Source: Escherichia coli (lineage in GTDB: Bacteria; Pseudomonadota; Gammaproteobacteria; Enterobacterales; Enterobacteriaceae). From it: a stretch of DNA of 64,000 nucleotides. The stretch lies in NCBI RefSeq assembly GCF_048403405.1, contig NZ_CP183129.1. One strand, written 5' to 3'. Position numbers and translations under genes: made by a program. Under the pieces are notes generated by a model. It worked only from the letters and a program-made list of their open reading frames with translations, was not told the origin of the DNA and searched no databases. Below, piece after piece: positions 42,090 through 46,223 of this stretch. The number at the start of each line of letters is the position of its first letter. The stretch's first letter is position 1.

Positions 42090-43422
<1,333 letters not shown>

Positions 43423-43440
43423 AACTTAGTTCGTTTTAAA

Positions 43441-43468
43441 GATTCTGCAGACACTGTCTGCAGAATTC
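43441..43468. repeat. perfect 11-bp-arm palindrome centred on CAGAC-N3-GTCTG (nanQ/yhcG convergent spacer)
   Basis: ATTCTGCAGAC-ACT-GTCTGCAGAAT; no flanking T-tract; same family as the three units inside yhcG. Confidence 0.7.
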
Positions 43469-43481
43469 GAAACCGCTGAAA

Positions 43482-44609
43482 TTAACGGCGTCTATAGCCT
43501 TCCTCTAGCACCGCCTGTGTTCGAACGAGTTCATCCGCGAGTCGTTTTTCATCAGGTAGTTGCATCTTATATTCGCTCGCCAGAACGGTGTTAGGCAAAC
43601 CAGCCAGTGCATAATACGCTTCGCCGGCTCCTTTCTCTGCACAGAGAACCAGACCGATGGGCGGATTTTCATCCGGTAGTGTCCAGTGCTCTTTGGCGTA
43701 GTTGAGATACATATTCATCTGTCCGGCATCGCTATAGCTGAATTTGCCCACTTTTAGATCGACGATTAGCAGGCAGCGTAAACGGCGGTGGAAAAACAGC
43801 AGATCGACACGAAACCAGTTGTCATCAATGCGTAACCTTCGCTGTCGACCAACAAAGGCAAAATCATCCCCAAGTTCCAGCATGAAATCCATCAGGTGGT
43901 TGATCAGCGCCTCCTCAAAATCAGATTCTGAGTATTCATCTTTCAACTCCAGAAATTCGAGCACAAAGGGATCGCGTATCGCCTGTTGCGGAAGAATATG
44001 CATCTCGGCAGGAGCGTGTTGTTGCAGCATGGCTGATTTATCATGTGACAGTAGTGTTCGCTCATAAAATTGGGTCGCAATTTGCCGCTCTAGCTGGCGG
44101 ACAGACCAACCACAGCGGAGCGTTTCTTTTTCATAAAAGCTGCGGGCGTCAGCGTTTTTAACGGAAAGTAGACGGACGTAGGTGGACCAGGGCAGGGGGA
44201 AAGATTTGGCAGACAGCGTCTGCCAAATCTTTGCCGATGGGAATTCTGCAGACGGTGTCTGCGGCATTCCCAATGGTGTTAATTCGCCAGACACTGTCTG
44301 GCGAATTTCAACATGTTGAAAAAAGAGGTAAAAAAGCCTCATTTGGCGTAAGTTTTTTGCAGAGAACCCACGCTTATACCTTAGACTTAAATCCTTTGAT
44401 AGTCGCTTGATTAGCTGCGCACCATACGCAGCCCTGGCCTCGCCACCTTGTTCAAATTCGACAATTCGTCGGCCAATTTCCCAGTATGTCGCGGTCATCA
44501 GCGCGTTAACGCTACGTACCGTTTCCGTCCGGGCGCTATCGACCAGGTGAATAATACCGTCGTGGATTTGCTGGTAGCCTGTTGAGGTTCTCTCTGAGAG
44601 CGATTCCAT
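43482..44609 (-). CDS. yhcG: DUF1016 (YhcG-family) protein with predicted PD-(D/E)XK nuclease fold
   Basis: 375-aa ORF, N-terminus MESLSERTSTGYQQIHDGIIHLVDSARTE; C-terminal region has nuclease-like D...ELK motifs (IVDLKVGK). Confidence 0.85.
   Translation of the reverse strand: MESLSERTSTGYQQIHDGIIHLVDSARTETVRSVNALMTATYWEIGRRIVEFEQGGEARAAYGAQLIKRLSKDLSLRYKRGFSAKNLRQMRLFYLFFQHVEIRQTVSGELTPLGMPQTPSAEFPSAKIWQTLSAKSFPLPWSTYVRLLSVKNADARSFYEKETLRCGWSVRQLERQIATQFYERTLLSHDKSAMLQQHAPAEMHILPQQAIRDPFVLEFLELKDEYSESDFEEALINHLMDFMLELGDDFAFVGRQRRLRIDDNWFRVDLLFFHRRLRCLLIVDLKVGKFSYSDAGQMNMYLNYAKEHWTLPDENPPIGLVLCAEKGAGEAYYALAGLPNTVLASEYKMQLPDEKRLADELVRTQAVLEEGYRRR
44200..44307. repeat. three tandem hairpin-forming palindromic units inside the yhcG coding sequence
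   Basis: Units at 44200-44232, 44234-44276 and 44281-44307, each with arms ending in CAGAC, a 3-nt centre, and GTCTG; arms differ between units but stay self-complementary. Confidence 0.7.
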
Positions 44610-44792
44610 TATCTGTCCCTTTATATGGCGCTGTGTTGAATAATGGAATCAGCTATACGCCGGGCATCTGCCGGTAACAATCCAGATGTGCGTATTACAT
44701 TGGTTTTCTTCAGATTATGCGAGGCGCTTTCCAGTACGAAAGGAGAATTTCAGCGCCGACTCTTTTCTGAGGAGGCGGCGCTGGGACAGAGC

Positions 44793-46223
<1,431 letters not shown>

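Follow-up and report, generated by a model that had tools for sequence, protein, structure and literature searches.

The start codon of yhcG lies within one arm of an inverted repeat, which raises the question of whether a hairpin in the mRNA controls translation of this gene, as an earlier note on this DNA had proposed. The window, that is, the whole 64,000-nt stretch of Escherichia coli DNA analyzed here, contains yhcG directly 3′ of gltD, on the same strand and with a 183-nt gap between the two genes. The protein consists of DUF1016_N and YhcG_C, a PD-(D/E)XK nuclease domain, and matches PDC-S02, a single-gene phage-defence candidate in PADLOC; a sequence search of the PDB with YhcG gave no hit. 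The coordinates of all features are collected in Table 1.

Table 1. Features in and around yhcG; positions are those of the window.
Feature	Position	Strand	Basis or remark
One arm of the repeat, GATTCCATTAT	44602-44612		read from window sequence
Other arm of the repeat, ATAATGGAATC	44640-44650		read from window sequence
5′ (upstream) arm in yhcG mRNA, GAUUCCAUUAU	44640..44650	(-)
3′ (downstream) arm in yhcG mRNA, AUAAUGGAAUC	44602..44612	(-)	holds start codon and codons 2-3
yhcG start codon AUG	44607..44609	(-)	inside mRNA-downstream arm; ORF and RefSeq annotation of PCN033
Shine-Dalgarno-like AAGGGA	44616..44621	(-)	in hairpin loop, 6 nt 5′ of AUG
Full predicted RNA hairpin	44599..44654	(-)	3 outer pairs, 1-nt bulge, 12-pair stem
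yhcG coding sequence, 375 aa	43482..44609	(-)	annotated yhcG in PCN033
yhcG leader, conserved in blocks across Enterobacteriaceae	44610..44735	(-)	alignment
Putative proximal promoter	TTGTTA 44680-44675, TATAGC 44657-44652	(-)
Position homologous to G0-10703 -10/start	44654..44666	(+)	TATACG at 44654-44659, equivalent start 44666
Stem-loop just 3′ of gltD stop codon (44793)	44751..44783	(-)	followed by AAAUUCUCCUUUCGU
CAGAC-N3-GTCTG palindrome, 12-bp arms	44281-44307
CAGAC-N3-GTCTG palindrome, 15-bp arms	44200-44232		-24.6 kcal/mol as RNA
Shorter CAGAC-N3-GTCTG copy	44248-44262
CAGAC-N3-GTCTG palindrome, non-coding	43442-43466		15 nt after yhcG stop codon

Geometry and predicted fold of the start-codon hairpin

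The two arms are complementary at 11/11 positions and are separated by a 27-nt spacer. Coordinates and sequence agree in every respect with the geometry claimed beforehand: the inverted repeat is exact over 11 bp, with the AUG located in the 3′ arm and the Shine-Dalgarno (SD) sequence in the loop. How often such an arrangement arises by chance depends on the scale considered. Perfect 11-mer inverted repeats with a spacer of 3-50 gave 19 hits in the window (corresponding to ~12 distinct sites, most of which are terminators or terminator-like), compared with 0.85 in dinucleotide shuffles. The probability that a repeat placed at random overlaps any of the 57 start codons is ~1.6% (57 x 2 x 9 / 64000, calculated by hand), and start-codon-covering perfect 11-bp repeats are expected at ~0.014 per window, or ~1 per 5-Mb genome. 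Thus, the yhcG repeat is unusual locally, yet at the scale of a genome it is within chance.

The 12-pair stem of the predicted RNA hairpin comprises 11 Watson-Crick pairs and one U.G pair and closes a loop of 25 nt. Folded locally (59-nt segment), it has a free energy of -15.5 kcal/mol (z = -3.45), and 0/200 shuffles were as stable. The hairpin is retained in a 91-nt context and is present in both the MFE and the centroid structure of the 241-nt leader and, likewise, of the 227-nt 5′UTR of K-12. In thermodynamic terms the stem is credible, and the folding energy of the yhcG 5′ region is in line with the earlier proposal. The pairing probability of the AUG is 1.00, which places yhcG at the top of the window jointly with aaeB (1.00), arcB and nanA being at 0.99; since the PCN033 gene coordinates are partly 1-2 nt off on the window, this value is slightly imprecise for ~15 of the control genes, whereas that of yhcG is exact. 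The SD region is mostly free (pairing probability of 0.24). Taken as a sequestration hairpin, the structure therefore encloses the start codon in its stem and leaves the SD itself outside it, and a fully paired AUG next to a mostly free SD fits a partial, standby-type decrease of initiation rather than a shut-off. Despite the high local stability (z = -3.45), the energy required to open the region from -20 to +15 (12.95 kcal/mol, ensemble) ranks only 14th among the 57 annotated genes in the window. The proposal that the stem could occlude initiation is thus supported in part, by its geometry, its stability, and the transcription of both arms in K-12 (see below), but weakened by the open SD and the opening rank of 14/57.

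Several other identities of the repeat were considered and rejected. A search of positions 43300-45000 with Rfam cmscan (E-value up to 10) yielded chance hits only, none of them in 44560-44800. An intrinsic terminator or attenuator is not compatible with an A/U-rich stem and a 27-nt loop followed by GCUCUCAGAG, and the terminator scan was empty. A MITE, an IS remnant, or a REP-type terminal repeat is ruled out because the arm sequence recurs only by chance: GATTCCATTAT with <=1 mismatch gave 3 matches (1.19 expected), namely, the two arms and one chance site. An invertible (phase-variable) segment is also rejected, as 12/12 Escherichia and Pseudocitrobacter alleles read share one orientation, no recombinase gene is adjacent to the yhcG repeat, and the 27-bp spacer between the arms is too short for inversion; in a survey of inversions, DUF1016 appears only among the neighbours of genes that invert. 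A conserved 4-5-bp helix, GCGU:RCGC, which encloses the region and was seen by eye, is too weak to claim.

Transcription and conservation of the yhcG leader

Published start sites for yhcG in K-12 lie at 3367641 and 3367673, with the ATG at 3367827 (PMC7967276 Table S1), which is 186 and 154 nt 5′ of the ATG, behind the -10-like sequences TAGTCT and TACTAT of MG1655. Thus, both arms are part of the yhcG mRNA in K-12. The earlier note had argued that a start site downstream of 44612 would exclude the upstream arm from the transcript; the K-12 data do not place a start there, but the coordinate itself was muddled, since the mRNA-upstream arm corresponds to 44650-44640 on the minus strand, and only start sites below 44640 exclude it. 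The window diverges from K-12 upstream of approximately -123, and the K-12 start sites lie beyond that point. In K-12, gltF-yhcADEF is located between gltD and yhcG; the gltD-adjacent arrangement of the window is present in 3139/5426 complete E. coli genomes and also in Kluyvera, most Citrobacter loci, Superficieibacter, Pseudocitrobacter, and Salmonella arizonae, and is therefore ancestral. The 501 bp of the window that were tested are identical to E. coli PCN033. The stem-loop behind gltD folds at -19.2 kcal/mol (z = -2.83), and a scan of 44450-44950 for sigma-70 promoters and terminators found zero sites. As this hairpin is not followed by a proper U tract and the scan detected no terminator, read-through from gltBD into yhcG is plausible in the window.

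Across enterobacterial genera, the leader is conserved in blocks (GAAAGCnnCTCGCAnAT, ATGTAAT, GGATTGAC/GGATTGTT, GCGTATnGnT, and AGGGA, the last being part of the SD), a pattern that, judging from the alignment, looks more like a promoter or operator than like an RNA structure. A -35/-10-like pair can be read from the alignment (TTGTTA-17-TATAGC in the window, TTGACC-17-TATTGG in Kluyvera); if it were used, transcription would begin inside the upstream arm. A sigma-54 reading of TGGAAAGCGCCTCGCA was rejected because Kluyvera, C. koseri, and Superficieibacter carry TCG or TTG in place of its GG, and inspection of the leader by eye for Fur, LexA, CRP, and NanR boxes yielded no adequate match. 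As a separate observation, an ATGTAA "start-stop" mini-ORF is conserved in the leader; in some genera it looks more like a direct repeat of ATGTAAT with 10-nt spacing.

The same intergenic region in K-12 (yhcF-yhcG) also encodes a candidate ncRNA, G0-10703, from the set of Raghavan et al, 2011, which was re-examined in PMC7967276; it starts on the other strand, 57 nt upstream of the yhcG ATG, and diverges from yhcG (PMC7967276 Table S1). In K-12, the end of its -10 hexamer, TATACT, is 3 nt away from the upstream arm, so that its promoter overlaps the repeat. However, G0-10703 is transcribed from the opposite strand and away from the repeat. In the window its -10 is degraded to TATACG, without the final T (mapped by homology), and the K-12-specific sequence that G0-10703 runs into is replaced by the 3′ end of gltD.

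For conservation of the stem itself, 80 YhcG loci were fetched from one-genome-per-species contigs, and the arms were compared in 12 Escherichia and Pseudocitrobacter alleles. The upstream arm matches at 11/11 positions in the window, W2-5, O55:H7, LD67-1, E69, E. whittamii, and E1V33, and at 10/11 in the K-12 lineage (outer G>C) and in SCPM-O-B-8794 (inner A>C). Both of these natural variants break a pair, and no compensatory change occurs in the Escherichia alleles read; in the SCPM allele, the hairpin disappears from the predicted MFE and centroid structures and the pairing probability of the AUG falls to 0.55. The 3′ arm is invariant in all Escherichia alleles examined, which is expected of a start codon and coding sequence. 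The arms agree at 10-11/11 positions in every one of the Escherichia alleles, those of E. whittamii and a cryptic clade among them, and a 9-bp core is kept throughout, but divergence is too low for this to carry weight; with ~7/27 variable sites in the loop versus 2/11 in the arm, arm and loop vary at about equal rates.

In Pseudocitrobacter, the MES N-terminus is kept, but only 6 Watson-Crick pairs plus wobbles are left and the stem is weakly present in the centroid. Citrobacter, Kluyvera, Superficieibacter, and S. arizonae have other N-termini (MNTLTS, MTTPTP, and others), other folds, and, upstream of the SD, a different small repeat (TGATAGCGA...TCGCAACTATCA); the S. arizonae copy of yhcG is a disrupted ORF. 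The probability that the start is paired ranges from 0.01 to 0.99 in orthologues from these four genera. RNAalifold on 15 enterobacterial leaders found no consensus structure (-0.03 kcal/mol, 2 pairs), and the arm sequences constitute the non-conserved part of the leader across genera. Sequestration of the start codon as a convergent trait of the YhcG family was rejected, because the median pairing probability of the start over 73 family members is only 0.57, the background of ordinary genes in the window. Conservation of the stem in orthologous loci, which the earlier note had named as a way to check its proposal, was thus not borne out, as pairing fails beyond Escherichia and comparison within the genus is uninformative. 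From the alleles compared, the start-codon stem appears restricted to Escherichia and shows no sign of selection.

The gene as a whole is not universally kept either. The region is found at >=90% identity in 4293/5426 complete E. coli genomes, and the leader region is missing from ~1100/5426. In 726 genomes, O104:H4 and BL21 among them, yhcG has 470 bp of unrelated, single-copy DNA in place of its 3′ two-thirds, and one of the junctions falls exactly on the outer edge of the palindrome at 44204-44228 (see below); a 101-aa "transposase" ORF in the replacing DNA has no Pfam or NCBIfam match and, being single-copy, is not an active element. yhcG is thus dispensable.

Damper, neutral palindrome, or DNA element

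Among the explanations considered, the hairpin is best read, tentatively and with somewhat less than even confidence, as a passive, constitutive, and Escherichia-specific damper of yhcG translation. We infer that, once both arms are transcribed, the mRNA would fold in vivo into an A/U-rich stem of 12-15 pairs, which would bury the AUG along with the first two to three codons while leaving the SD (AAGGGA) exposed in a loop of 25-27 nt. 30S subunits would dock on the open SD (standby binding) and then wait for the stem to breathe, and the outcome would be a constitutive lowering of initiation on yhcG. In the window, the stem would limit translation of the PD-(D/E)XK nuclease from transcripts that may read through from gltBD. 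Low expression of YhcG is plausible given that it is a nuclease-fold defence candidate, and if the hairpin does damp translation, this would explain how such a candidate can be located directly behind the strongly expressed gltBD without over-production. As YhcG is uncharacterised, a regulatory detail at its start has little leverage. The hairpin is not a regulatory switch, and no ligand-, temperature-, or sRNA-responsive element was found at it. "Translational control" in the sense of a selected or regulated device, which the earlier note had suggested, finds no support, since the stem is not conserved beyond Escherichia, breaks in the arm are uncompensated, and the SD is open.

Structures of this kind are well known, and the yhcG start hairpin is an unremarkable further instance. 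The closest likeness is to the coat gene of phage MS2, for which de Smit and van Duin reportedly modelled an initiation-codon hairpin with exposed SD and standby binding of the 30S subunit; here, too, the AUG is enclosed in a local stem next to a single-stranded SD, and a stability-dependent decrease of initiation is expected. Cases of the MS2 type have been proven by mutation and compensation, whereas the yhcG stem is a prediction with a long loop (25-27 nt) and without phylogenetic support. In type I toxin-antitoxin systems such as hok and tisB, the mRNA of the toxin is translationally silenced, with its ribosome-binding region buried in structure. A potentially harmful product and a buried start region are shared with yhcG, and in K-12, the antisense-oriented G0-10703 overlaps the 5′UTR. 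However, it does so from -57 upstream and not at the hairpin; moreover, processing-dependent activation or toxicity of the product is not known for yhcG, and the fold is not family-wide. In RNA thermometers (ROSE, fourU), the SD pairs with a U-rich strand via weak or non-canonical pairs. These and the expression platforms of riboswitches resemble the yhcG element in being cis-acting 5′UTR hairpins at the start site, but, unlike in thermometers, the yhcG SD lies in the loop, the stem is perfect, and no Rfam family matches.

Whether the hairpin affects expression at all is the point on which the next explanation, ranked close behind, differs. The repeat may be a neutral coincidence, that is, either a lineage-specific accident of the A/T-rich leader or a quasipalindrome perfected by template switching, without measurable effect on expression; this is a real possibility, if a slightly less probable one than a damper. 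It is consistent with the one such case per genome expected by chance, the absence of the stem from other genera, the uncompensated arm variants with about equal variation of arm and loop, the ordinary energy needed to open the ribosome-binding site, and the dispensability of yhcG (truncated or without its leader region in the genomes mentioned above). What keeps it from first place is physical: a stem of -15.5 kcal/mol that contains the AUG and is transcribed in K-12 is expected to lower initiation. The 9-bp core kept in all Escherichia alleles read points the same way, though divergence there is too low to lend it weight.

The two remaining explanations shift the function from the start codon to DNA or to the 5′ end of the transcript. 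That the arms are half-sites for a protein, or parts of a promoter (of the divergent G0-10703, of a proximal yhcG promoter, or of both), is unlikely. In K-12, the repeat does occupy the spacer, the -35, and the upstream region of the G0-10703 promoter, and around it the leader consists of conserved blocks separated by variable spacers, a pattern shared with promoters and operators; but the centres of the arms are 38 bp apart, unlike in a single dimer operator, no known motif (Fur, LexA, CRP, NanR, sigma-54) was recognised by eye, and it is precisely the arms that are not conserved across genera. In addition, the G0-10703 -10 of the window (TATACG) is devoid of the critical last T, and no sigma-70-like site passed the scan. 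Least probable of all is a 5′-terminal stabiliser, in which the putative proximal promoter would start transcription at ~44648-44643 and a 9-10-bp stem at the very 5′ end would block 5′-end-dependent decay. The -35/-10-like blocks do recur across genera with a spacer of constant length (17-18 bp) and variable sequence, and a transcript from 44648 still folds a 10-bp 5′-terminal stem (-12.2 kcal/mol). However, the stability of this shortened transcript does not exceed that of shuffles (z = -0.81), the -10 is without the conserved final T in all species, no promoter was found in the scan, and no starts other than those at -154 and -186 are listed in the published K-12 data (PMC7967276).

Palindromes within yhcG coding sequences

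Beside the start-codon repeat, further perfect inverted repeats in or next to yhcG share the core CAGAC-N3-GTCTG (Table 1). This core occurs four times in the 64-kb window, always in or next to yhcG, compared with 0.07 occurrences expected. The unit is a perfect 25-bp palindrome, ATT-NNN-CAGAC-NNN-GTCTG-N'N'N'-AAT. Perfect palindromes with a 3-nt loop and arms of 11-16 bp were counted in 71 intact YhcG homologues from Beta- and Gammaproteobacteria, Acidobacteria, Planctomycetes, Nitrospirae, Cyanobacteria, and others. Across these homologues, 58 (4.9 per kb) are located in a short linker that precedes the conserved FPLPWSxY motif, compared with 0 in the other 70 kb of coding sequence and 14 in 329 kb of flanks. 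Copy number is between 0 and 4 per gene when imperfect copies are included, perfect copies numbering <=3.

The linker encodes Q/E-T-x-S motifs, 58/117 of which lie in perfect palindromes (arms >=11 bp), where free choice of synonymous codons predicts 0.05. As the variable triplets stay complementary, covariation is forced on the amino acids (I-V..S-A-Q, I-L..S-A-K or S-G-E, I-R..S-G-E, and I-S-E-T..S-R-K). In the non-coding copy 3′ of the stop codon in Escherichia, lineages differ by two changes that compensate each other. No excess of sense-strand G.U, which was used to tell RNA from DNA, was detected in the coding palindromes (70 G.U versus 135 A.C); the constraint is thus one of strict Watson-Crick pairing, and the molecule subject to it could be DNA or RNA. 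No mention of coding palindromes in YhcG genes was found in the searchable literature. They matter more than the start hairpin, because here a base-pairing constraint overrides the choice of both codons and amino acids in a widely transferred defence-island gene.

That nucleic-acid hairpins control yhcG at more than one level, with the start hairpin as an Escherichia-specific addition to the palindromes maintained across phyla, is quite improbable. Under such a scheme, the YhcG nuclease or DUF1016_N might bind hairpins formed by its own mRNA or gene, leading to autoregulation, or the hairpins might be recombination points at which gene segments are exchanged. However, both the CAGAC core and the 3-nt loop of the palindrome family are absent from the start-site repeat.

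Palindromes in the coding sequences of YhcG homologues

Genes of the YhcG/DUF1016 family, compared between the window and loci fetched from other genomes (L005-L083), carry a family-wide perfect in-frame palindrome with the unit ATT-NNN-CAGAC-NNN-GTCTG-N'N'N'-AAT, in which arms of 11-16 bp flank a loop of 3 nt and which encodes the peptide I-x-Q-T-x-S-[AG]-[EKQ]. A count covering 71 intact homologues, spread over many phyla, placed 58 palindromes in the linker before FPLPWSxY, compared with 0.05 expected from synonymous-codon resampling. The remaining 70 kb of coding sequence outside the linker contained none, and the flanks contained 14 in 329 kb. The number of copies per gene varied between zero and four. 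The variable triplets of the palindrome co-vary, and covariation of the encoded amino acids is thus forced; an excess of G.U pairs on the sense strand was not observed in the palindromes. The palindromes may serve as structured elements in regulation or as sites of recombination, or the YhcG nuclease may itself target them. No mention of these palindromes was found in the searchable literature.

Features of yhcG and its leader
Feature	Position or motif	Strand	Remark
YhcG palindrome copy	44200-44232	minus	inside yhcG
YhcG palindrome copy	44248-44262	minus	inside yhcG
YhcG palindrome copy	44281-44307	minus	inside yhcG
YhcG palindrome copy	43442-43466		15 nt past yhcG stop
Replaced yhcG segment	43424-44203		replacement at L091 545-1014; also in L092
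Leader block 1	GAAAGCnnCTCGCAnAT	minus	leader alignment
Leader block 2	ATGTAAT	minus	leader alignment
Leader block 3	GGATTGAC	minus	leader alignment
Leader block 4	GCGTATnGnT	minus	leader alignment

Replacement of the 3′ part of yhcG

Single-copy foreign DNA of 470 bp takes the place of the 3′ two-thirds of yhcG in 726 E. coli genomes out of 5426, O104:H4 C227-11, CT29, and BL21 among them; this is a single clonal event. One junction is the exact outer edge of the 25-bp yhcG palindrome, homology resuming at 44204 (ATTTGGCAGAC); the other lies directly behind the nanQ stop codon. The replacement encodes an ORF of 101 aa, annotated as "transposase," for which neither Pfam nor NCBIfam returned a match.

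The gltD-yhcG junction and the yhcG leader

The adjacency of gltD and yhcG seen in the window is the ancestral state in Enterobacteriaceae. Where the window has 58 bp (44733-44790), K-12-type genomes carry gltF-yhcADEF, a segment we take to be ∼6 kb (window compared with L001 and L093). The hairpin following gltD sits within these 58 bp and is absent from the K-12-type layout. The K-12 yhcG promoters (start sites −154 and −186) fall in K-12-specific sequence. The candidate divergent ncRNA G0-10703 has its −10 site within 44654-44666 (plus strand), reading TATACT in K-12 but TATACG in the window; strains with the gltD-adjacent layout therefore probably have a weak promoter for this ncRNA or none. 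If transcribed in the window, the K-12-type ncRNA body would run into the gltD 3′ end.

Alignment of enterobacterial yhcG leaders resolved 44610-44735 (minus strand) into discrete blocks conserved across genera, without RNA structure. Superficieibacter and S. arizonae each carry two ATGTAAT copies with a 10-nt offset, and the MGYG-HGUT-00110 locus has a near-copy. The pair TTGACC-17 nt-TATTGG resembles a promoter whose −10 element is weak; transcription from it would start within or beside the upstream arm (44640-44650) of the inverted repeat around the yhcG start codon.

Individual rearrangements were also observed. Strain PSJ-23 (L002) has an IS3-family insertion at window position ∼44656, on the outer side of the upstream arm and separated from it by 6 bp; IS1 interrupts yhcF in strain BH212 (L001 2400-3097); and the upstream arm and most of yhcG are deleted in strain HH97 (L003). 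In Citrobacter gillenii, a second copy of the gltD 3′ end (L009 3596-3691; residues 441-472, 91% identical) lies directly downstream of yhcG, which looks as if it had arrived by an insertion that duplicated the gltD end.
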